A DNA stretch of 64,000 bases, from NCBI GenBank assembly GCA_015231405.1, contig JADGBR010000007.1, forward strand, positions 40,791 to 104,790, given 5' to 3'. The first letter of the stretch is position 1. Each line of letters starts with the position of its first letter. Source of the stretch: Candidatus Omnitrophota bacterium (lineage in GTDB: Bacteria > Omnitrophota > Gorgyraeia > Tantalellales > Tantalellaceae). Positions 46,049-55,817 of this stretch are shown piece after piece. The notes under the pieces were generated by a model. That model searched no databases. It had not been told where the DNA came from and saw only the letters and a list, made by a program, of their open reading frames with translations. Made by a program: the position numbers and the translations under genes.

Positions 46049-46591
46049 ATGGAACGCCGTTCGATATTTCACTTGGTATCCAAGATATCCAGGCAGGCCG
46101 GAGTTAACTGTGTGCTGATCGGCGGATTTGCCGTTAATTATTACAAAGTCACAAGGCAGACAGCTGATGTCGATTTTATGATAACGGAAGAGGATTATAG
46201 AAAGATCGAAGCTTTGATCAAAGAGGCAGAATACAAAGAGGATCAAAGCCATGGGAATTTTATACGGTTAAAGAGTACCGGCAGCAAGTTCTTTATGGAT
46301 GTCGATTTTATGTTCGTAGATAAAAATACGCTGGATAAGATCCTGGACAATGGAAAAAAAATGACCATAGCGGGGCAGGAATTTACAGTGCCTTCTTTGA
46401 ACGATCTCATCGCGTTGAAACTCCATGCCCTTAAATACAATGCTAAACTGAGAGAGACTAAAGATCTGCCGGATATTATCGATCTTATCAGGATAAACAA
46501 TATAGAATATAAGAGCAAAGACTTTCACGATCTATGTTTTAAGTATGGTAATGCCGAGACATACGAAAAGATAATGAAAACACTGGAGTAA
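46049..46591 (+). CDS. Nucleotidyltransferase-fold protein (AbiEii/MJ1651-like minimal NTase?)
   Basis: VLIGGFAVNYY...DVDFMI pattern. Confidence 0.35.
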   Translation: MERRSIFHLVSKISRQAGVNCVLIGGFAVNYYKVTRQTADVDFMITEEDYRKIEALIKEAEYKEDQSHGNFIRLKSTGSKFFMDVDFMFVDKNTLDKILDNGKKMTIAGQEFTVPSLNDLIALKLHALKYNAKLRETKDLPDIIDLIRINNIEYKSKDFHDLCFKYGNAETYEKIMKTLE

Positions 46592-46865
46592 AAAGACTTG
46601 GATAAACTGAATTTTCCCGTTATTAAGGGATTAAAACCCAATAAAAAGATCCTGTCGATGGACGAATACCTTGAATTCGTTACATTCAATTTAAAATACA
46701 CCGTCGACAGGGAGGCAGTCCGCCGGTGGAAACGGAAACTTCGGGTAAATGTCCCTTTTGTGATCAAATAAAGGCGGGAAGCAGCCTTTCTCCCTTGGGG
46801 TTTTATAATTTGACAACGATTGCGATTTTATCTATAATTGCTTTTGAGATCGCACCCAATTTCGT

Positions 46866-46941
46866 TCCTCGGTAGCTCAATGGTAGTAGCGACTGGCTGT
46901 TAACCAGTAGGTTGTAGGTTCGAGTCCTACCCGAGGAGCCA
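46866..46941 (+). tRNA. tRNA-Asn (anticodon GTT)
   Basis: Hand-folded cloverleaf: acceptor TCCTCGG/CCGAGGA, anticodon stem ACTGG/CCAGT with loop CTGTTAA, T-arm GTAGG-TTCGAGT-CCTAC, discriminator G, encoded CCA. Confidence 0.85.
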
Positions 46942-46984: not shown

Positions 46985-47369
46985 TTAAATGGCTCCGAGG
47001 GTAGGACTCGAAGGGAGATCTGGAGCCTTTAATCAAGGTCTGGTCCGAGAGAGCGAGGACCAGACACACAACCGACAGATCGGGTGGCCGACCGGAGGCC
47101 TGCTATGTTTTTTGAGGAGCGAAAGCGACGAACAAAAACATGCTAGCGGGCCGAAGGCGCCGAGTCCCGCTTTCGTACGTTAAAACAAAACCAAATTGCC
47201 CCCCTATTTCCCTTGTCAAACCCACCATAAAATGCTATTGTAAACCCACGTCAGGGGGAATGTTTGACATGCGAGACCAGTCACAAACCTCAAATAACCA
47301 AAGCGTCACAAAAAAGGCACTGGGCTAACCCGGTGCCTTTTTTGCTTTTGAAAGAAAATAACGTCAATT

Positions 47370-49787
47370 ATGCGGCTTTATTCAGGAACATCAAAACAGT
47401 TTATTCAAGATGCGATTCATAATCAGATTGCAGAGAAGTTAAAAAACGCTTTTTTCGGCTATTACCGCTACAATCCTTCTCCTGCTGAGATAAATTCTTG
47501 GCGAAATTCGCTACGTTCAATGTCCCAAGTATTTCAACACGCAGATCTATTGGACAATGGAGTTCTTCTCGAGTATCAACTGCCTCTAACTTCGAGACGC
47601 TTAGATTGCATGATCTGTGGCCGTGATCAGCAAAAAACTGATAATGCGGTTATCGTGGAGTTGAAACAATGGGATAAGTGCGAAGAAGCCTATGGTGATA
47701 ACGAAGTACTTACGTGGGTAGGAGGTGCAAAACGCGAAGTATTGCATCCGTCGGTTCAAGTGGGACAATACCACCTTTATCTGGAAGATACCCATACAGC
47801 ATTTAACAGCGAAGATGATCCTGTTGTCCTGAATGCCTGTACTTATTTGCATAATTACAATTACTATTCTGAGGACATTATTTATTCGGATAAATTTGCT
47901 CAGACTCTTGAGAAGTACCCCTTATTTACAGCTGATGATGTGGAAAAATTAACGGGTTATTTGCGTAATAGACTTTTGGCCGGTGATGGCTTGGATGTTT
48001 TGCAGAGGATCGAAGAAAGTAAATATCGGCCGAATAAGAAGCTCATGGATCATGTTGGTAATATTATAAAAAACAAAACAGAATATATACTGCTAGATGA
48101 ACAACTTATTGTTTACGATGCGGTCTTGGCATGCGCGAAGCGAAGCTTCCATGATAAGCAGAAGTCAATAATTGTTGTAAAAGGTGGTCCGGGAACGGGT
48201 AAGTCTGTTATAGCGATTAATTTAATGGCTGATTTGCTATTAAAGGGATACAACTCTCATTATGCCACTGGCTCTAAGGCCTTCACGGAAACACTGCGGG
48301 AAATCATAGGAACTCGAGGATCTGTGCAGTTTAAGTATTTTAATAGTTACAGCCAAGCTGAAGAGAATGCCATAGATATCCTGATTGCTGATGAAGCCCA
48401 CCGCATACGCGAGACAAGCAATAGCCGATTCACACCCCGTTCGAGTCGATCAGAAAAGACGCAAATTGAGGAATTGCTTCGAGCGTCTAAAGTCGCGGTA
48501 TTTTTCATTGATGACGATCAAGTGGTGCGTCCAAATGAAATAGGTTCGGTTGATTATATTAAGAATATTGCGGGCGATAATAAAATAAAGCTCCACGAAT
48601 ATGAATTAGAAGCTCAGTTCCGTTGTAATGGTTCTGATGCGTTTGTGAGCTGGATAAACAATACGTTAGGGATAAAAAGAACTGCCCATGTTATTTGGGA
48701 TCAGCATGAAGAATTTGATTTCAAGATATTTCCCAGTCCCCTTGAACTTGATAATGCCATACGGAAGAGAGTCGCGCGGGGTTCTACGGGGAGAGTAACG
48801 GCCGGGTTTTGCTGGGACTGGTCATTACCTAACGGCGATGGCACATTGAAAAACGATGTGATAATTGGAGATTATAAGCGGCCATGGAATGCTAAACCCG
48901 AAGCTCAACGTCTGGCGCTGGGTATCCCCAAAGCTTCTCTGTGGGCATACGAACCTGTCGGCATTGATCAGGTAGGATGTGTCTATACCGCTCAAGGTTT
49001 TGAATTCGATTACGTTGGAGTTATTTTCGGCGAGGATGTGGTATATGATTTTGACAAGCAAGAATGGGTTGGCAATCCCGCTAAGTCTTCGGACAGAGTT
49101 GTTAAACGGTCTAAAGACAAATTTGCCGATTTAGTGAAAAATACCTATAGGGTTTTATTGAGTAGAGGGATGAAGGGCTGCTATGTATATTTCATGAATA
49201 AAGATACTGAACGTTTCTTTAAGTCACGGATTGAAGGTGATAATACACGGGTAGACGAACCCTTAACAGTATCTAAACTACTAGATAGCGAGTCGGATTT
49301 TCTTGAGCGTATTTTACAGGATGTTGACAGTTCTTTAAAATATAAGGAATATTTACCCGTTTATACTTTGACTGCAGCTGCTAGCGCGTTCGGCGAGGGT
49401 ATGGATGTTAGGGAAAAGGGTTGGATTAAAGTTAATATTGGAAAGCCACTAAACAGAAAATTGTTCGTTGCAAAAGTGGTTGGAAAATCAATGGAGCCGC
49501 TGATCCCAGATGGCAGCTATTGTGTATTTAGCGCGAATGTTGTTGGTACGCGGGCAAACAAAATAGTATTAGTGCAACACAATAGCATTTCAGATCTAGA
49601 TACCGGTGGAAGATATACCATAAAAAAGTACACGAGTAAGAAACGATACGCGTCAGATGAAACCTGGGAGCACGAAGAGATAGTCCTACTGCCAATTAAT
49701 CCCGCATATGCGCCGATTATAATACCAAATACCAACGAGGATGAATTTATGGTAATCGCTGAGTTTATTACCATAATAAAGAATTAG
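47370..49787 (+). CDS. PD-(D/E)xK nuclease / DUF2075-type P-loop ATPase fused to a C-terminal LexA-like S24 peptidase domain
   Basis: N-terminal nuclease-like D...VELK motif. Walker A GGPGTGKS and Walker B LIADEAH. C-terminal GKSMEP (Ser) ... TIKKY (Lys) ... VLLPINPAYAPI matches the LexA/UmuD catalytic-domain pattern. Confidence 0.7.
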   Translation: MRLYSGTSKQFIQDAIHNQIAEKLKNAFFGYYRYNPSPAEINSWRNSLRSMSQVFQHADLLDNGVLLEYQLPLTSRRLDCMICGRDQQKTDNAVIVELKQWDKCEEAYGDNEVLTWVGGAKREVLHPSVQVGQYHLYLEDTHTAFNSEDDPVVLNACTYLHNYNYYSEDIIYSDKFAQTLEKYPLFTADDVEKLTGYLRNRLLAGDGLDVLQRIEESKYRPNKKLMDHVGNIIKNKTEYILLDEQLIVYDAVLACAKRSFHDKQKSIIVVKGGPGTGKSVIAINLMADLLLKGYNSHYATGSKAFTETLREIIGTRGSVQFKYFNSYSQAEENAIDILIADEAHRIRETSNSRFTPRSSRSEKTQIEELLRASKVAVFFIDDDQVVRPNEIGSVDYIKNIAGDNKIKLHEYELEAQFRCNGSDAFVSWINNTLGIKRTAHVIWDQHEEFDFKIFPSPLELDNAIRKRVARGSTGRVTAGFCWDWSLPNGDGTLKNDVIIGDYKRPWNAKPEAQRLALGIPKASLWAYEPVGIDQVGCVYTAQGFEFDYVGVIFGEDVVYDFDKQEWVGNPAKSSDRVVKRSKDKFADLVKNTYRVLLSRGMKGCYVYFMNKDTERFFKSRIEGDNTRVDEPLTVSKLLDSESDFLERILQDVDSSLKYKEYLPVYTLTAAASAFGEGMDVREKGWIKVNIGKPLNRKLFVAKVVGKSMEPLIPDGSYCVFSANVVGTRANKIVLVQHNSISDLDTGGRYTIKKYTSKKRYASDETWEHEEIVLLPINPAYAPIIIPNTNEDEFMVIAEFITIIKN

Positions 49788-49897: not shown

Positions 49898-50078
49898 TAA
49901 CAGTGGTGTAATATGTTATGCACAGTGTCTGCGGGGATGCGGGGAGGGGAGAGTTTAAGCGAAGGTTATGCAAGAAAGCCGGCAGATGGGTGTCAAGGCG
50001 TAAAAAGGCACCCGGATTTGTTTCATAACTAACGGTGGTGTAATATGTTATGCACAGTGTCTGCGGGGAGAACGGGGC
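49898..50078. repeat. Two 40-bp direct repeats (49898-49937 and 50039-50078): TAAC(A/G)GTGGTGTAATATGTTATGCACAGTGTCTGCGGGGA
   Basis: Identical except for one base; located between the S24-fusion gene and its truncated 3' duplicate. Confidence 0.8.
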
Positions 50079-50093
50079 GGCTCGCGCAATGGA

Positions 50094-50318
50094 TTGGTGG
50101 TTTTAGTTGAGTCTCGTTTGGTGAGGGATCCGGAGTCCCACCAGAGTTTCACGATCAAACGATATCACAGCGAGAAGCAGGATCTTGGTGGTGGTGAATG
50201 GCGGCATAAGAAGATCACGCTATCGCCTGACAATAAGGATTTTCACGATATCGTGCTGAAAGATATTACCGGCGGGGATTTTCATGTAGTAGCCGAATTT
50301 GTTGAAGTGATCGTATAA
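50094..50318 (+). pseudogene. Truncated duplicate of an S24-domain C-terminus, a remnant of a paralogous DUF2075-S24-like gene
   Basis: VVLVESRLVRDPESHQSFTIKRYHSEK...HVVAEFVEVIV aligns with IVLVQHNSISDLDTGGRYTIKKYTSKK...MVIAEFITIIK of the upstream gene. Confidence 0.5.
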
Positions 50319-50335: not shown

Positions 50336-51502
50336 ATGAAAAATGCCTTTATTGTTATGCAAATTGGTAATGCTGAGCTCGACTCTGTTTGCGAGCAAGC
50401 TATTGTCCCTGCCCTCAAAAAATGTGGTCTAGATCCCAAGCGAGTAGATAAGCATAATCAGGGAGGACTGCTGAAAAGCGAGATCGTAAATTTTATTGAA
50501 TCCTCGGAGATTATAATCGCCGATCTTACTAACGAAAGGCCAAATTGTTATTTGGAAGTTGGCTACGCGATGGGGTTAGATAAGTTTAGGCATCTGATAC
50601 TGACTGCGCGAGAGGATCACAATCACGATAGCCCAAATTATATAAAAACCGGTCCCAAGATTCATTTTGACTTAGCTGGTTATGATATTTTATTTTGGGA
50701 TCCGAAAAAACTCGACAATTTCAAAGATGAGCTTGAAAAGCGAGTTAAACGGCGCTTGGCTACTCTTCAAACCCCTCCCTCGAAAGAAGAAACTATTTGG
50801 GATGACGATTGGATAAATAATCATGCTGTTACCGCACATGCCAATTTAAAGAAATCAAATAAATCCGGATTTATGGAAATTCGAATGGTCATACCCAATT
50901 CAGGCCTCAATATTCCACAAAGTGAATTGCTGAGTGTTGCTGAACAGGCGACAATCCATACTTTTGGATGGCCAATCGGTGTTGTTCTGAAAAACAGGGA
51001 CGAATACCGACCGCGTCCTAAAACAGATGGTATTGTTGCTGATATAGACACAGGGGATCATTATGATTATTGGGCGATTAGGAAAGATGGCGCGTTCTAT
51101 CTCTTGAAAAGCTTATTCGAAGATATGCGAAAGCCGGGGCATCTATTTTTTAATACGCGTATTGTGAGGATTACGGAGGCGCTTTTGTATGCAGTGCGCC
51201 TTTATACTGGATTTAAAGTTCCAGCAGATTCCCGAGTCGTTATTGGAATAAAGCATGGTGGATTAAAAGATAGAATGCTCGTTTCTTCAAGTTTTTCGCG
51301 AGAACTTAGTTATGAAAGAAAATCGATCGAGGATGAGGTGTACACTGAGATTGACACTACTCTTGCTAAGATCGAGTCACAGTTACCCGATCAGGTTGAG
51401 GCACTTACAAAACCGCTATTCGTATTATTTGATTACTTTGAAATCGGCAGATCTGTTTTGGATGATATTGTTAATAAGTTTGTTGAAGGTAAGGTTACTT
51501 GA
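50336..51502 (+). CDS. Protein with an N-terminal nucleoside 2-deoxyribosyltransferase-like (NDT/SLOG-type) domain; C-terminal 250 aa unknown
   Basis: IIADLTNERPNCYLEVGYAMGL resembles the NDT family D...E[LI]G[YF]A catalytic-Glu motif. Confidence 0.45.
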   Translation: MKNAFIVMQIGNAELDSVCEQAIVPALKKCGLDPKRVDKHNQGGLLKSEIVNFIESSEIIIADLTNERPNCYLEVGYAMGLDKFRHLILTAREDHNHDSPNYIKTGPKIHFDLAGYDILFWDPKKLDNFKDELEKRVKRRLATLQTPPSKEETIWDDDWINNHAVTAHANLKKSNKSGFMEIRMVIPNSGLNIPQSELLSVAEQATIHTFGWPIGVVLKNRDEYRPRPKTDGIVADIDTGDHYDYWAIRKDGAFYLLKSLFEDMRKPGHLFFNTRIVRITEALLYAVRLYTGFKVPADSRVVIGIKHGGLKDRMLVSSSFSRELSYERKSIEDEVYTEIDTTLAKIESQLPDQVEALTKPLFVLFDYFEIGRSVLDDIVNKFVEGKVT

Positions 51503-51954
51503 TTTGTCCGAAGTTCTGATATAAACATTTTCTGCTCTTTGGGATTTTTAAGCATCTGCCGTAGCTGACGCTCGGTTATTAGCCGTTTTGGCATGGGATC
51601 GCCCAAGGCTTCAACGGCTTCGACCAGCGAAGGGTTAAGGTCAAGAAGGCTCGTATATTGCCAGATCCTGACCCGGGAGATGCCGACTTTGCGGGCAAGG
51701 TCGCTTTCGTTCTTGGCATGGCCTGATTCGATCATTCGGGCGTATTCCTTGGCCCGGAAGATGGGGTTCCGGTAGGTCTTTGGCGGTTTGGGGCGGATCC
51801 TGCGGGCTTCGTCAGGCGTCTGGCCTTCGCGGACGATGGAAATGATGCGATGATTCCATTTTCCCTGTTCGGTCACAAGCGCGGTGAAGTGCCATAACAG
51901 GCCTGAATCTGAATACCGTCCGGGGAGCCAATTTTCAGAAACCCCTACAGACAT
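51433..51954 (-). CDS. ParB/KorB-like HTH protein; start uncertain because the start codon sits inside a hairpin, and there is a 70-bp convergent overlap with the previous gene
   Basis: NPIFRAKEYARMIESGHAKNESDLARKVGISRVRIWQYTSLLDLNPSLVEAV resembles the ParB HTH region. Confidence 0.35.
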   Translation of the reverse strand: MSVGVSENWLPGRYSDSGLLWHFTALVTEQGKWNHRIISIVREGQTPDEARRIRPKPPKTYRNPIFRAKEYARMIESGHAKNESDLARKVGISRVRIWQYTSLLDLNPSLVEAVEALGDPMPKRLITERQLRQMLKNPKEQKMFISELRTNQVTLPSTNLLTISSKTDLPISK

Positions 51955-51990
51955 TTAGTTTGTAGGGGTTTTTCATTTTGGTATAATCTC
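51939..51990 (+). promoter_or_regulatory. Hairpin + T-run + TATAAT element, copy 1
   Basis: AAACCCCTACA ... TGTAGGGGTTT stem, then TTTTCATTTTGG, then TATAAT. A near-identical architecture sits at 53818-53867. Confidence 0.45.
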
Positions 51991-52498: not shown

Positions 52499-53071
52499 GT
52501 GGATATGAGCGTATTACTCGGAACCAGACTCCGCAACAAGCTGTTAACTTACGCGTTCTCCCGCGCGGACGGTGAGTTTTATGTGCGCGAGGCTGCCTCG
52601 GTCATAGGAGAGGACCCCGGCAACCTTTCAAGGGAGCTTAAACGCCTTGAGGGCGAGGGTCTTTTTGTTTCCCGCACTTCCGCGAACGCCAGATTTTATT
52701 CGGTCAATAAGAACTATTATCTTTTCAATGAGCTCAAGGCCGTTGTCGCCAAAACGTCGGGCGTTGAGGCCAGACTGAAGGACATAGCTGCGTCGCACAA
52801 AGAAATAGAGCTCGCGTTCATTTACGGATCATACGCGAAAAATACCGAGAAAAAAGGTTCTGATATCGACGTTGTCTTTGTAGGAAGATCTCTTCCCGAA
52901 AAGGTCATTACTGATATCAACTTGCTTGAGAGCGAGATCTCAAGAGAGATCAACTACACGTTCTACAAAAAAAACGACTTTGAGAAAAAACGCCTTGAAA
53001 AAGGCGGTTTTCTCGCCGAAGTTCTCGCCGGGAAAACCCTGGTACTGAAAGGGGAGGTCCATGAAAGATAA
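52499..53071 (+). CDS. HTH + minimal nucleotidyltransferase (MNT-type) protein
   Basis: N-terminal winged-helix-like region; NTase motif IYGSYAKNTEKKGSDIDVVFV. Confidence 0.6.
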   Translation: MDMSVLLGTRLRNKLLTYAFSRADGEFYVREAASVIGEDPGNLSRELKRLEGEGLFVSRTSANARFYSVNKNYYLFNELKAVVAKTSGVEARLKDIAASHKEIELAFIYGSYAKNTEKKGSDIDVVFVGRSLPEKVITDINLLESEISREINYTFYKKNDFEKKRLEKGGFLAEVLAGKTLVLKGEVHER

Positions 53072-53144
53072 ACTGGTAGAAAGGCTAATTAAGGAAGAAA
53101 AACTTTAAAAACAGACATCCGGGATAATTCAGGTAGAAAAACTT

Positions 53145-53534
53145 TTGAAAGAAGCCGTAATTGATATGGGAGAGGCATCGAAGATCAGAAATATTTCCGA
53201 AAGGGGAACATATCTTCTTGCCTACGGGGCGATGCTTAAAACCGGAAGGGCTCTCGTTCTTTTCCTGGGATATGTCCCGGATGACGGGGCGCAGCATAGG
53301 ACCGTGACAGAAATTGTCGCCGCGTGTCTGGGAGAAAAATTCAATAAAGTTACGTCTCATTTTGAAAGAATGCGCAGAAAAAGGAACGATCTTACATATG
53401 AGGCGGGCATTCTCCTTTCCGGAAGCGAAGCGGAAGAGGCGTTGTCCGACGCGAAAAAGCTTATCAGTGAAATATCTAACCACATAAAGACCAAGGATCC
53501 ACAGCTGCGGTTCGATTTTGAAGTTGAGTCATGA
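53145..53534 (+). CDS. HEPN-like / NTase-substrate-binding-like partner of the MNT gene (TTG start)
   Basis: Position directly downstream of the MNT gene. RMRRKRNDLTYEAG resembles the Rx4-6H HEPN motif but with Y/T in place of H. Assigned by context. Confidence 0.4.
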   Translation: MKEAVIDMGEASKIRNISERGTYLLAYGAMLKTGRALVLFLGYVPDDGAQHRTVTEIVAACLGEKFNKVTSHFERMRRKRNDLTYEAGILLSGSEAEEALSDAKKLISEISNHIKTKDPQLRFDFEVES

Positions 53535-53817
53535 TTTATTATACAGCCGGTGAAAAACTATCTGGATCAATATTTTGAGAAAGGCTCTTGAGTTGCGACC
53601 CGAGGGGTGCACTTATCGGGTATAAGGTTTTATGTTAGGCGAGAGGCAAGAGGATATAACCTTTGGCCTCGCGCCTATGGTGAAGTGACGGCTGACTAGG
53701 CCTGACGCCAAGTTTACCTGTGATCGACAAATTCCGACTAACTAGTGGTAGAGTTCTTCTTTAGGCAGGGCCAATAATGCACTGCGGTATTCGTTGATGA
53801 AGGGAGCTAAACTTCCA

Positions 53818-53867
53818 AAGCCCTTACAGACATTTAGTCTGTAAGGGCTTTTCTTTTTTGATATAAT
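53818..53867 (+). terminator. Hairpin + T-run + TATAAT element, copy 2 (terminator-like, 14-bp perfect stem)
   Basis: AAGCCCTTACAGAC-ATTTA-GTCTGTAAGGGCTT then TTCTTTTTTG then TATAAT. Confidence 0.5.
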
Positions 53868-53930
53868 CCTTTATAAGAGATCATACTTTATCTAAAGACA
53901 CTTCCATAAAACAATACAATAATTTCCAAA

Positions 53931-54271
53931 ACAAATCCGGGTAATTGAATGGCTAATACCCGGATTTATTTTGTAATGTCTTGACTATAAACAGCTTGCA
54001 GAAAGTGTCTGCCTGGGGTATATAAACAGCTTGCAGAAAGTGTCTGCCTGGGGTAAATACCCGGATTTATTTTGTAATGTCTTGACTATAAACAGCTTGC
54101 AGAAAGTGTCTGCCTGGGGTAAAGTGTCTGCCTGGGGTATTGACTATAAACAGCTTGCAGAAAGTGTCTGCCTGGGGTCAACAAATCCGGGTAATTGAAT
54201 GGCTAATACCCGGATTTATTTTGTAATGTCTTGACTATAAACAGCTTGCAGAAAATGACTGCCTGGGGTAT
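53931..54271. repeat. Nested direct-repeat (iteron-like) array upstream of kaiC
   Basis: A 91-bp unit (AACAAATCCGGGTAATTGAATGGCTAATACCCGGATTTATTTTGTAATGTCTTGACTATAAACAGCTTGCAGAAAGTGTCTGCCTGGGGTA) occurs at 53931 and 54181. Its 31-bp core AAACAGCTTGCAGAAAGTGTCTGCCTGGGGT occurs 5 times plus a partial, at irregular spacing. An internal 11-bp inverted repeat is AAATCCGGGTA/TACCCGGATTT. Confidence 0.85.
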
Positions 54272-54353
54272 TTCCAGGACGTTAGGGAAGGCCACTGGGC
54301 CCCGTTCTCGGTATTTCATGTAGGTCGCTAGGACGTGAAAAAAGGAGATCAGA

Positions 54354-55817
54354 ATGGCAAAATCAAAAAGTGTGTTGGGGGTGGGCAGAGTAATGCCTGA
54401 GCTACCTAAAGTTATGACCGGCATTCAGGGGTTAGATGAGATAACATTCGGAGGACTGCCAAAGGGGCGACCTACCCTTGTGTGCGGAGGCCCCGGTTGC
54501 GGCAAGACGCTCTTGGCTATGGAGTTTCTTTGCAGGGGCGCTCTGCAATATAACGAACCCGGCGTCTTTATTGCCTTCGAAGAGAAAGAGAAAGATCTGG
54601 AGGAAAATTTCGCCTCGCTCGGTTTCGATTTAAAATCGCTTGTAAAGCACAAAAAACTCGTTATCGATTATGTCTACATCGAAAGAAGCGAGATCGAAGA
54701 GACGGGCGAATATGATCTTGAAGGACTCTTCGTCCGTTTAGCGGCCGCCATTGATTCGATCGGCGCAAAAAGAGTAGTTCTCGATACCATCGAGGCCCTA
54801 TTTTCAGGGTTTTCAAATGAATCGATCCTGCGCGCGGAATTAAGGCGGCTATTCCGCTGGCTTAAAGATAAGGGAGTCACGGCAGTAATTACCGGCGAAA
54901 AAGGCGAGTCACTTCTAACAAAGCATGGATTGGAAGAGTATGTCGCGGATTGCGTCATACTCCTCGATCACCGCACGGTTAATCAGATTGCAACGAGACG
55001 TCTTAAGATAATAAAGTATCGCGGTTCAAAACACGGAACCAACGAATTCCCGTTCCTTATAGGCGAAACCGGTATCTCTGTTTTTCCCATGACGAGCTTA
55101 CTTTTATCAAGCACTGTGAGCTCTCGGCGTATATCATCCGGCATAAAGAGCCTCGATGAGATGTTGGGCAATAAAGGCTATTACAGGGGGAGCACTATCC
55201 TTGTATCCGGATCAGCAGGAAGCGGGAAGACCAGCTTTGGCGCCAAGTTTGTGGACGCCGTATGTGAGACTGGCGAACGCGCGTTATATCTCGCTTTTGA
55301 GGAGCCTGAAGACCAGCTATCCAGAAATATGAAGAGCATAGGTATCGATCTTAAGAAGTGGATAGATAAAGGGCTATTGAAGATCAATGCTAACAGGGCA
55401 ACCCTGTGCGGCCTTGAGATGCATCTTGTCATGGCGCATAACGCAGTAAGAGATTTTAAGCCGTCGGTCGTTGTCATAGATCCGATCACGACACTGATAG
55501 GCGCAGGGATGGCGGATGAGGCAAAAGCGATGATGGCCAGGCTTCTCGATTATCTTAGGAACGAAGGCATCACCGTTTTGGCGACAGACCTCTCGCTTGG
55601 CAGTACTCATGGGGATAGCGCGGAAATAGGCATATCATCTCTTTGTGACACGTGGATAAGGCTATCCATGGAAACTCAAGGATACAGGAGGATGCGCAGA
55701 CTTAGTATCATAAAATCAAGAGGCATGAAACATGCCCATGATACAAAAGATTTTATGATAACCGACAACGGGCTCGAGATGAAAGATATTCCCGGCCGAA
55801 AGGAGGACTTAAGATGA
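54354..55817 (+). CDS. kaiC: KaiC-like double RecA-domain ATPase
   Basis: [16 protein letters not shown], two Walker A motifs ([16 protein letters not shown]), 487 aa; strong RBS AAAAGGAGA. Confidence 0.85.

Follow-up and report, generated by a model that had tools for sequence, protein, structure and literature searches.

A candidate one-gene immune protein from Candidatus Omnitrophota that joins an NDT/TIR-like domain to a widely shared C-terminal domain

Introduction

Swarozyc and Evangelion are DUF4062 TIR-like NADases that carry an auxiliary sensor region (PMC13174449; 10.64898/2026.06.25.731849). Nuclease–sensor fusions have also been described among the prokaryotic Schlafen proteins, for which “TBP-like” fusion partners are reported (PMC13056530), bSEFIR is a single-gene defence system (10.1101/2022.05.11.491447), and the retron Ec86 has an NDT-like effector (10.1101/2023.08.16.553469).

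The gene described here, hereafter called the target, lies in 64,000 nucleotides of DNA from a Candidatus Omnitrophota bacterium (the window, meaning the whole stretch that was analysed). We propose that its product is a self-contained immune protein of the abortive-infection type, made of one polypeptide with sensor and effector on the same chain, and we put the probability of this reading at about 0.55. It is favoured by the fold and motif of the N-terminal domain, the swapping of both domains, the autonomy of the gene as a unit, the defence contexts of its relatives, and the rates of the two domains (79% versus 61% identity). An earlier note on this DNA had suggested a role in antiphage conflict, which we likewise find plausible.

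Results

The target gene and its family

The target is intact, and its product agrees at every residue (100% identity) with a hypothetical protein that NCBI lists for a Candidatus Omnitrophica MAG.

50336..51502, + strand: target gene, an intact ATG open reading frame of 388 amino acids plus stop codon

A word-indexed search with the target yielded 1566 hits, and a profile search covering 1.84 billion cluster representatives matched 8,537 proteins at E<=0.001; at E<=1e-30, 402 representatives remained. Because the family is this large, the open reading frame is not a product of chance. Full-length homologues were found at 60–87% identity, and besides these, many of the profile-search matches cover only one half of the query.

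The family is missing from the 2023 PADLOC models and from the 2025 Pfam release. In PADLOC-DB v2.0.0, no model matches the target over its full length, the sole match being a 60-residue TIR-effector stretch. Neither the target architecture nor its C-terminal domain is described in any paper found by a full-text literature search of incomplete coverage. A scan for promoters and terminators around the target gave counts no higher than those in shuffled sequence.

The N-terminal NDT/TIR-like domain

The first 143 residues form a domain with a conserved glutamate at position 74.

50336..50764, + strand: N-terminal NDT/TIR-like domain (residues 1–143), predicted N-glycosidase effector
50555..50557, + strand: codon of E74, the predicted catalytic glutamate (L-E-V-G-Y-A motif)

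The motif ADLTNERPNCYLEVGYAMGL corresponds to residues 62–81. In an alignment of 38 homologues (60–87% identity), E74 and nearly the whole D63–K83 stretch are invariant, and the target sequence C71-Y-L-E74-V-G-Y-A agrees with the (T/C)xxExG(Y)A motif of NDT. In the Lactobacillus NDT, the equivalent glutamate, E98, is the catalytic residue (10.1101/2023.08.16.553469). Scored directly against PF05014, the target reaches 15.2 bits (E 0.024) over residues 48–91 only, which is below the gathering cut-off of 28.8, and other carriers of the N-terminal domain score equally weakly. A Bacillus mycoides plasmid protein (L086:4428-5381) bridges this gap: it reaches 33.9 bits against PF05014, which exceeds the cut-off, and is 33% identical to the N-terminal domain over 120 amino acids (pairwise E 2e-17, database E 4e-8), with E74 aligned to the glutamate of its F-E-A-G-Y-A sequence. 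E74 also aligns with the F-E-V-G glutamate of a Trypanosoma NDT, in a weak match (E 1.7). The NDT-type motif with a catalytic-type glutamate, which the earlier note had read in this region, is thus borne out by the invariance of E74 and by the agreement of the weak PF05014 score, the transitive link and the fold.

As for the fold, the model of the N-terminal domain is flavodoxin-like and has the TIR fold; it comes closest to TIR and NDT enzymes, with TIR domains ranking ahead of NDTs as structural neighbours, and this comparison upholds the placement in the NDT/TIR-like group. Comparison with NDT enzymes is also how the catalytic glutamate of TIR NADases first came to be recognised. The PADLOC model PDLC00733 (CBASS “Effector TIR”) matches residues 45–105 with an E-value of 1.7e-10. 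The kinship with LOG, SLOG and TIR domains that had been suggested for this region is supported for TIR by the fold, alongside the PDLC00733 match, and is not supported for SLOG/LOG, for which neither a sequence match nor a fold match to the target was found. The target has no match at E<=1 to Pfam TIR, TIR_2 or SEFIR, nor to PF13271 (DUF4062) in the Pfam scan; PF10137 (CAP12 TIR) is matched faintly, and only in relatives of the target. The NCBIfam search with the target protein returned nothing, and the PDB sequence searches, with both the single sequence and the profile, returned only chance-level matches. Three independent lines, namely the PADLOC TIR-effector match, the PF05014-positive bridging protein and the fold, support the assignment of the N-terminal domain to the NDT/TIR-like group, with a homology that is traceable to bona fide PF05014 members.

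The linker and the C-terminal domain

A short linker joins the N-terminal domain to the remainder of the chain.

50765..50803, + strand: variable low-confidence linker (residues 144–156)
50804..51499, + strand: novel C-terminal alpha/beta domain (residues 157–388), predicted sensor/regulatory module

Nowhere does the family vary more than in the linker, whose pLDDT falls below 50 at residues 147–151. When residues 145–388 are modelled alone from 54 sequences, they form a compact alpha/beta fold with a pLDDT of 95 and a pTM of 0.92. The C-terminal 250 amino acids have no match in Pfam, NCBIfam, PADLOC or PDB sequences, in agreement with the earlier description of about 250 unrecognisable residues. 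According to the model, the C-terminal domain is discrete and confidently folded, and has no solved relative.

Exchange of both domains among other partners

We annotated with Pfam 33 cluster representatives in which the C-terminal domain follows a foreign N-terminus. The partners are as follows.

RelA_SpoT: 13 of 33 representatives, the commonest alternative partner
TIR_2: 8 of 33
TIR: 6 of 33
SEFIR: 5 of 33
Schlafen AlbA_2: 3 of 33
CAP12-type TIR: 3 of 33
GGDEF: 1 of 33
Protein kinase: 1 of 33
ParA-like ATPase: 1 of 33

Some of these foreign N-termini match PADLOC models of validated or candidate defence systems: bSEFIR (E down to 3.8e-71) and ThsB (5e-29), which are close matches to validated defence proteins, as well as PDC-S33 and PDC-S66. 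Conversely, the N-terminal domain is paired with other C-terminal or N-terminal partners in about 20 representatives. Both target domains are therefore shuffled among other partners. Mobile elements carry them as well: gp67 of the Burkholderia temperate phage phiE125 and its relatives consist of AlbA_2 and the C-terminal domain, with a RelE toxin adjacent to them at the end of the genome; gp11 of the Streptococcus prophage SM1, part of the lysogeny module, carries the N-terminal domain; and the C-terminal domain also occurs on haloarchaeal and Deinococcus plasmids. Among the IMG/VR viral contigs, close relatives of the target were not found.

In the full-length family, the mean pairwise identity is 79% for the N-terminal domain and 61% for the C-terminal domain. 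The higher conservation of the N-terminal domain is the pattern expected of an effector paired with a sensor. For a sensor of variable phage proteins, the C-terminal domain is nevertheless unusually well conserved, and many of its polar residues are invariant, among them E181, D244, E262, R275, E281, R288 and H307. Its conservation would fit the binding of a nucleic acid or a small molecule, or even an enzymatic activity, at least equally well.

Tentatively, and at somewhat less than even odds, we suggest that the C-terminal domain is a new, widely shared module for sensing infection or a ligand, which prokaryotes and temperate phages would have plugged onto at least seven effector classes and which responds to one conserved cue. 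The classes meant are NDT-like, TIR, SEFIR, RelA/SpoT, Schlafen nuclease, GGDEF and protein kinase. Since the domain is so conserved, it would recognise one such cue rather than a variable phage protein.

The same conservation, together with the invariant polar residues, keeps alive a signalling model in which the roles are reversed: the N-terminal domains (NDT/TIR-like, TIR, RelA/SpoT and GGDEF) would all generate nucleotide signals or modify nucleotides, and the C-terminal domain would be their common output, as an effector, an enzyme or a binder of some conserved ligand. We regard this as quite unlikely, because two of the partners, the Schlafen AlbA_2 nuclease and the protein kinase, are not signal synthases, the C-terminal domain is the less conserved of the two, and the fold matches are too weak for a functional assignment.

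Distribution and inheritance of the target as a single open reading frame

Altogether, 94 related loci, spread over more than 20 phyla and with archaea among them, were compared, and they have no neighbouring gene in common; local searches covered 87 of the 94. One of the loci (L048) belongs to Marinifilum caeruleilacunae, which can be cultivated. The gene neighbourhoods were scanned in one genome per GTDB species; this pattern-limited scan of 185,579 species genomes yielded 77 loci, from more than 20 bacterial phyla as well as Methanoperedens, Methanosarcinales and Bathyarchaeota, with identities of 45–78%. The phyletic distribution is wide and patchy.

No conserved neighbour emerged from the all-against-all clustering of 1238 open reading frames from the 77 loci. 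Among 114 immediate neighbours, no Pfam family occurs more than twice, and a combined Pfam and PADLOC census found none in more than three. Blastn of the window flanks against all of the loci gave zero matches. The closest relatives, with 85–87% protein and 78–81% DNA identity, resemble the window in DNA between 50334/50336 and 51495/51505 only, with the similarity confined to the interval between start and stop codon, and their flanks are unrelated to those of the window. Because the homology ends at the borders of the open reading frame and no neighbour is conserved, the single open reading frame is the unit of inheritance. As judged from these alignments, the target behaves as a mobile cassette of one open reading frame, which moves horizontally without a partner gene.

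Most immediate neighbours across the 77 genome loci are ordinary genes. The annotated contexts, however, are often defence-like or mobile, and in only two of eight do they consist of housekeeping or metabolic genes. Type I restriction-modification operons enclose two homologues, one of them with the N-terminal domain only, and a third homologue comes immediately after a gene for a type I methyltransferase (these cases are loci L009, L068 and L001). Another copy has a type III-like restriction-modification system immediately ahead of it and genes for ParB-methylase and terminase behind it, with prophage genes adjoining; another directly follows a Thoeris system composed of ThsA SIR2-STALD and three ThsB genes; and one has a type IIG restriction-modification gene next to it, along with genes for integrase and transposase. 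The copy in L088 follows genes for a PLD-SNF2 helicase, a type IIG methylase, a sigma factor, a small S24 protein and DUF2188, and a further copy is located within a HEPN_Swt1/PBECR2/BrnT toxin cluster.

Could the target be an ordinary NDT-family enzyme of nucleotide salvage or metabolism, equipped with a regulatory domain and without a role in conflict? The NDT-type motif and the copies that lie among metabolic genes would suit such an enzyme. However, the target is seldom met and patchily spread (the pattern-limited scan found 77 loci in 185,579 species genomes), shares 45–66% identity across bacterial phyla and archaea, has no conserved operon, exchanges its domains with toxin domains, and is carried on prophages and plasmids. 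A purely metabolic role is therefore very unlikely.

The defence contexts also bear on the idea of a selfish gene. The target could be a fused toxin–antitoxin, acting as an addiction element or a stress switch that serves to maintain mobile DNA or to control growth, without phage sensing, and in which the N-terminal domain is the toxin and the C-terminal domain a cis-acting antitoxin. The copies within restriction-modification and Thoeris clusters argue against this, and the functions of toxin–antitoxin and abortive-infection systems overlap heavily; fused toxin–antitoxin proteins such as CapRel function in phage defence. We consider an addiction role rather unlikely, and prefer the reading of the target as an immune protein, although the evidence as a whole fits either reading.

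The S24 genes upstream and the surrounding island

In the window, the target is located in a stretch of lower GC content (0.40–0.46, versus 0.50–0.54 in the preceding 9 kb) that starts at about 46 kb, with a tRNA-Asn at 46866–46941 just inside its start. The Rfam scan of this region found the tRNA only. The stretch contains an AbiEii-like nucleotidyltransferase, a helicase-S24 fusion, an S24 remnant, the target, a ParB-HTH open reading frame and an MNT/HEPN pair; the ParB-HTH frame, which is probably truncated, overlaps the 3′ end of the target in antisense. Insertions and deletions seem to have shaped this region, which resembles a mosaic defence island.

47370..49787, + strand: helicase-S24 fusion of 805 amino acids, SLFN-group-3-helicase (DUF2075) plus Peptidase_S24, a separate candidate defence gene
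49898–49937 and 50030–50069, + strand: 40-nt direct repeat in two copies, where the parent gene of the remnant is cut off
50079..50318, + strand: S24 remnant, the 3′ end of a different S24-ended gene, identified by alignment to the 805-residue protein

The 805-residue protein matches PF09848 (1.2e-89) and PF00717 (7.3e-09) in Pfam, and PDC-S41 (1.8e-18), AbiO and Nhi in PADLOC. An S24 remnant directly upstream of the target had already been noticed, and we could corroborate it: although it has no Pfam match of its own, window positions 50079–50312 align to residues 726–803 of the 805-residue protein with 32% identity (E 5e-10), and its stop codon stands 17 nt before the ATG of the target. Because the identity is only 32%, the remnant is not a copy of the S24 domain of the intact gene. 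The 40-nt repeat has only these two copies in the window, where none would be expected by chance.

From the remnant, the earlier note had suggested that the target and a DUF2075-S24-type gene form a conserved two-gene unit, in which the SLFN helicase–S24 fusion would be the other half of a defence module. The position of the remnant, with its stop codon so close to the target ATG, could mark such a partnership; the intact helicase-S24 gene lies 0.5 kb upstream of the target; and a small stand-alone S24 gene stands two genes upstream of the homologue in one other locus. Nevertheless, tblastn and phmmer searches of the 87 loci (the 77 from the scan and ten more) with the 805-residue protein, its S24 domain and the remnant returned no relative of either the DUF2075 or the S24 part, whether at E<=1 or at E-values up to 5. 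In six further loci annotated with Pfam, the stand-alone S24 gene just mentioned (in L088) was the only one, and it shows no kinship with the remnant (E 0.25). None of the neighbour families is conserved among the loci, the closest homologues (85–87% identity) have unrelated flanks, homology stops at the ends of the open reading frame, and the remnant is not a copy of the intact S24 domain. The neighbourhoods of the homologues thus show no conserved linkage to S24-fused ATPases. The conserved two-gene unit is refuted, since the partner is missing from related loci and the homology is confined to the open reading frame, and we give the two-gene module a probability close to nil.

On these comparisons, the S24 remnant is not a functional partner of the target. 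Its tight spacing is best explained by two independent genes that were once adjacent, of which the upstream one decayed. The adjacency of the target to the S24-fusion gene is an accident of a mosaic defence island and not a functional pairing.

Discussion

Proposed mechanism

We infer the antiphage function of the target, its enzymatic activity and substrate, its auto-inhibition and the sensing of a trigger, and propose the following scheme.

Resting state: The C-terminal domain would keep the enzyme off until an infection cue arrives. This gating probably operates through oligomerisation, on which the activity of TIR and NDT enzymes depends.

Activated state: The N-terminal domain would act as an N-glycosidase with E74 as its catalytic residue and, once switched on, would destroy an essential nucleotide cofactor or pool. 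The likeliest substrate may be NAD+, with a (d)NMP/NTP-type nucleotide as the alternative; the choice of substrate is a guess. The predicted result is growth arrest or abortive infection, which would block the spread of the phage.

If this reading is right, the target is a compact and portable immune gene present in more than 20 phyla, including archaea. If, in addition, the C-terminal domain is the shared sensing module suggested above, it defines a new family of single-gene immune proteins extending from Omnitrophota to methanogenic archaea, and identifying its ligand would explain how TIR, SEFIR, toxSAS, Schlafen and NDT-like effectors are triggered.

Comparison with known systems

Compared with the NDT family (PF05014: LlNDT, DNPH1/Rcl, MilB), the target scores below the family threshold (15.2 against 28.8) and has TIR domains as its structural neighbours. 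It differs from the retron Ec86 in having no reverse transcriptase, no ncRNA and a different second domain. The top Foldseek match of the whole model is SPARTA TIR-APAZ (E 2e-4), and both proteins begin with a TIR-like domain and continue at the C-terminal side into an alpha/beta region of similar length; the target has neither the APAZ domain nor the adjacent short pAgo gene that would make it a SPARTA system.

CapRel follows a logic like the one we propose for the target, in that an N-terminal toxin is auto-inhibited by a C-terminal sensor of a phage protein. RelA_SpoT is the commonest alternative partner of the C-terminal domain (13 of 33), whereas the target itself has no RelA_SpoT domain. 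We saw no sequence relation between the C-terminal domain of CapRel and that of the target, and the former is much smaller.

bSEFIR and the target are both single genes, in which an N-terminal TIR-like domain precedes about 210–240 amino acids without an assigned domain. Relatives of the C-terminal domain that carry SEFIR match the bSEFIR model, with E-values down to 3.8e-71. Four of the six strong matches are confined to the SEFIR half of the bSEFIR profile (positions 35–200 of 412), with alignments that end at positions 198–241; a further three run on to positions 218–307, one of them falling between the two groups, and P0264 alone extends clearly further, to position 307. Overall, the match of these relatives is essentially limited to the SEFIR half of the profile. 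A search with the SEFIR domain returned only short proteins of 150–260 amino acids. The target, in contrast, has an NDT-like domain instead of SEFIR, and does not match the bSEFIR model (PDLC03957).

Swarozyc and Evangelion share with the target a one-polypeptide architecture, an N-terminal TIR/NDT-like domain with a catalytic glutamate (predicted in the target), a C-terminal auxiliary region without a recognised domain, and a patchy, horizontally transferred distribution, frequently near other defence genes. The N-terminal domain of the target, however, does not match PF13271 even at E<=1. Moreover, KpSwz has an auxiliary HTH/winged-helix domain, while the target has a single, well-conserved alpha/beta domain common to many effector types. 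The protein follows the well-established theme of a TIR-like effector and a sensor on a single chain, and its novelty is the shared C-terminal domain.

The helicase-S24 gene and the 40-nt repeat

Upstream of the target gene, which encodes an N-terminal NDT/TIR-like domain and a C-terminal domain lacking a known relative, lies a fusion gene (47370-49787). Its 805-aa product joins an SLFN group-3 helicase (DUF2075, E 1e-89) to a C-terminal Peptidase_S24 domain, and its PADLOC matches are the candidate PDC-S41 and the AbiO/Nhi models. This helicase-S24 gene is a candidate defence gene separate from the target, and the distribution of the target bears no relation to it. A direct repeat, present in only two copies within the window, lies after the intact helicase-S24 gene and ahead of the S24 remnant, the decayed 3′ gene end just upstream of the target, at the place where the parent gene of the remnant is truncated.

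49898-49937 and 50030-50069: 40-nt direct repeat; the copies are 98% identical and share an exact core of 33 nt

Flanking elements

The region is flanked by two further toxin-antitoxin or Abi-type modules, as follows.

46049-46771: AbiEii/DUF2204-like nucleotidyltransferase with a small ORF downstream
52499-53534: Polbeta-nucleotidyltransferase (MNT)/HEPN pair

The low-GC island that holds the target and other defence-like genes begins close to a tRNA gene.

46866-46941, + strand: tRNA-Asn

An inverted copy of the 3′ 23 nt of this tRNA, with two mismatches, is found at 46990-47012, 48 nt past the tRNA gene, where none is expected by chance. This copy may be the scar of an old integration event at the edge of the island.

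On the 3′ side of the target, an antisense ORF and a repeated hairpin were observed.

51433-51954, − strand: ParB-HTH ORF, antisense, with a 70-nt overlap with the 3′ end of the target
51923-51979 and 53802-53858: two copies of a 57-nt terminator-like hairpin element, 81% identity

The start of the ParB-HTH ORF, which is probably a truncated remnant, falls within a strong hairpin (51937-51973) that may serve as the terminator of the target transcript. The second copy of the 57-nt element comes after the MNT/HEPN pair, and a repeat array and Kai-like genes lie beyond it.

53930-54276: dense direct-repeat array, directly upstream of the KaiC-like gene
54354-55817: KaiC-like gene, then two KaiB-like genes and one for a PAS histidine kinase

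Within this array, a 49-nt unit occurs five times, a 92-nt unit three times and the 20-mer AAAGTGTCTGCCTGGGGTAT six times. It looks like a regulatory or binding-site array.

Relatives in other genomes

Ahead of the target homologue in one locus (L088:1-6986) are genes for a PLD-SNF2 helicase, a type IIG methylase, an ECF-type sigma factor and Peptidase_S24, together with a DUF2188 gene. The Peptidase_S24 gene there is stand-alone (187 aa), and a comparison of its product with the window's S24 remnant revealed no relation (E 0.25).

The C-terminal domain of the target is shared by gp67 of the temperate Burkholderia phage phiE125 (L084:3281-4675; annotated as "ATP-binding protein"), where it follows a Schlafen AlbA_2 domain. 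The gp67 gene adjoins a RelE-like toxin at the end of the phage genome, and may be a defence gene borne by a prophage.

In another genome, the target has a homologue of 64% identity directly downstream of a complete Thoeris locus (L093:3728-6567), composed of three ThsB TIR genes and one ThsA SIR2_2-STALD gene.
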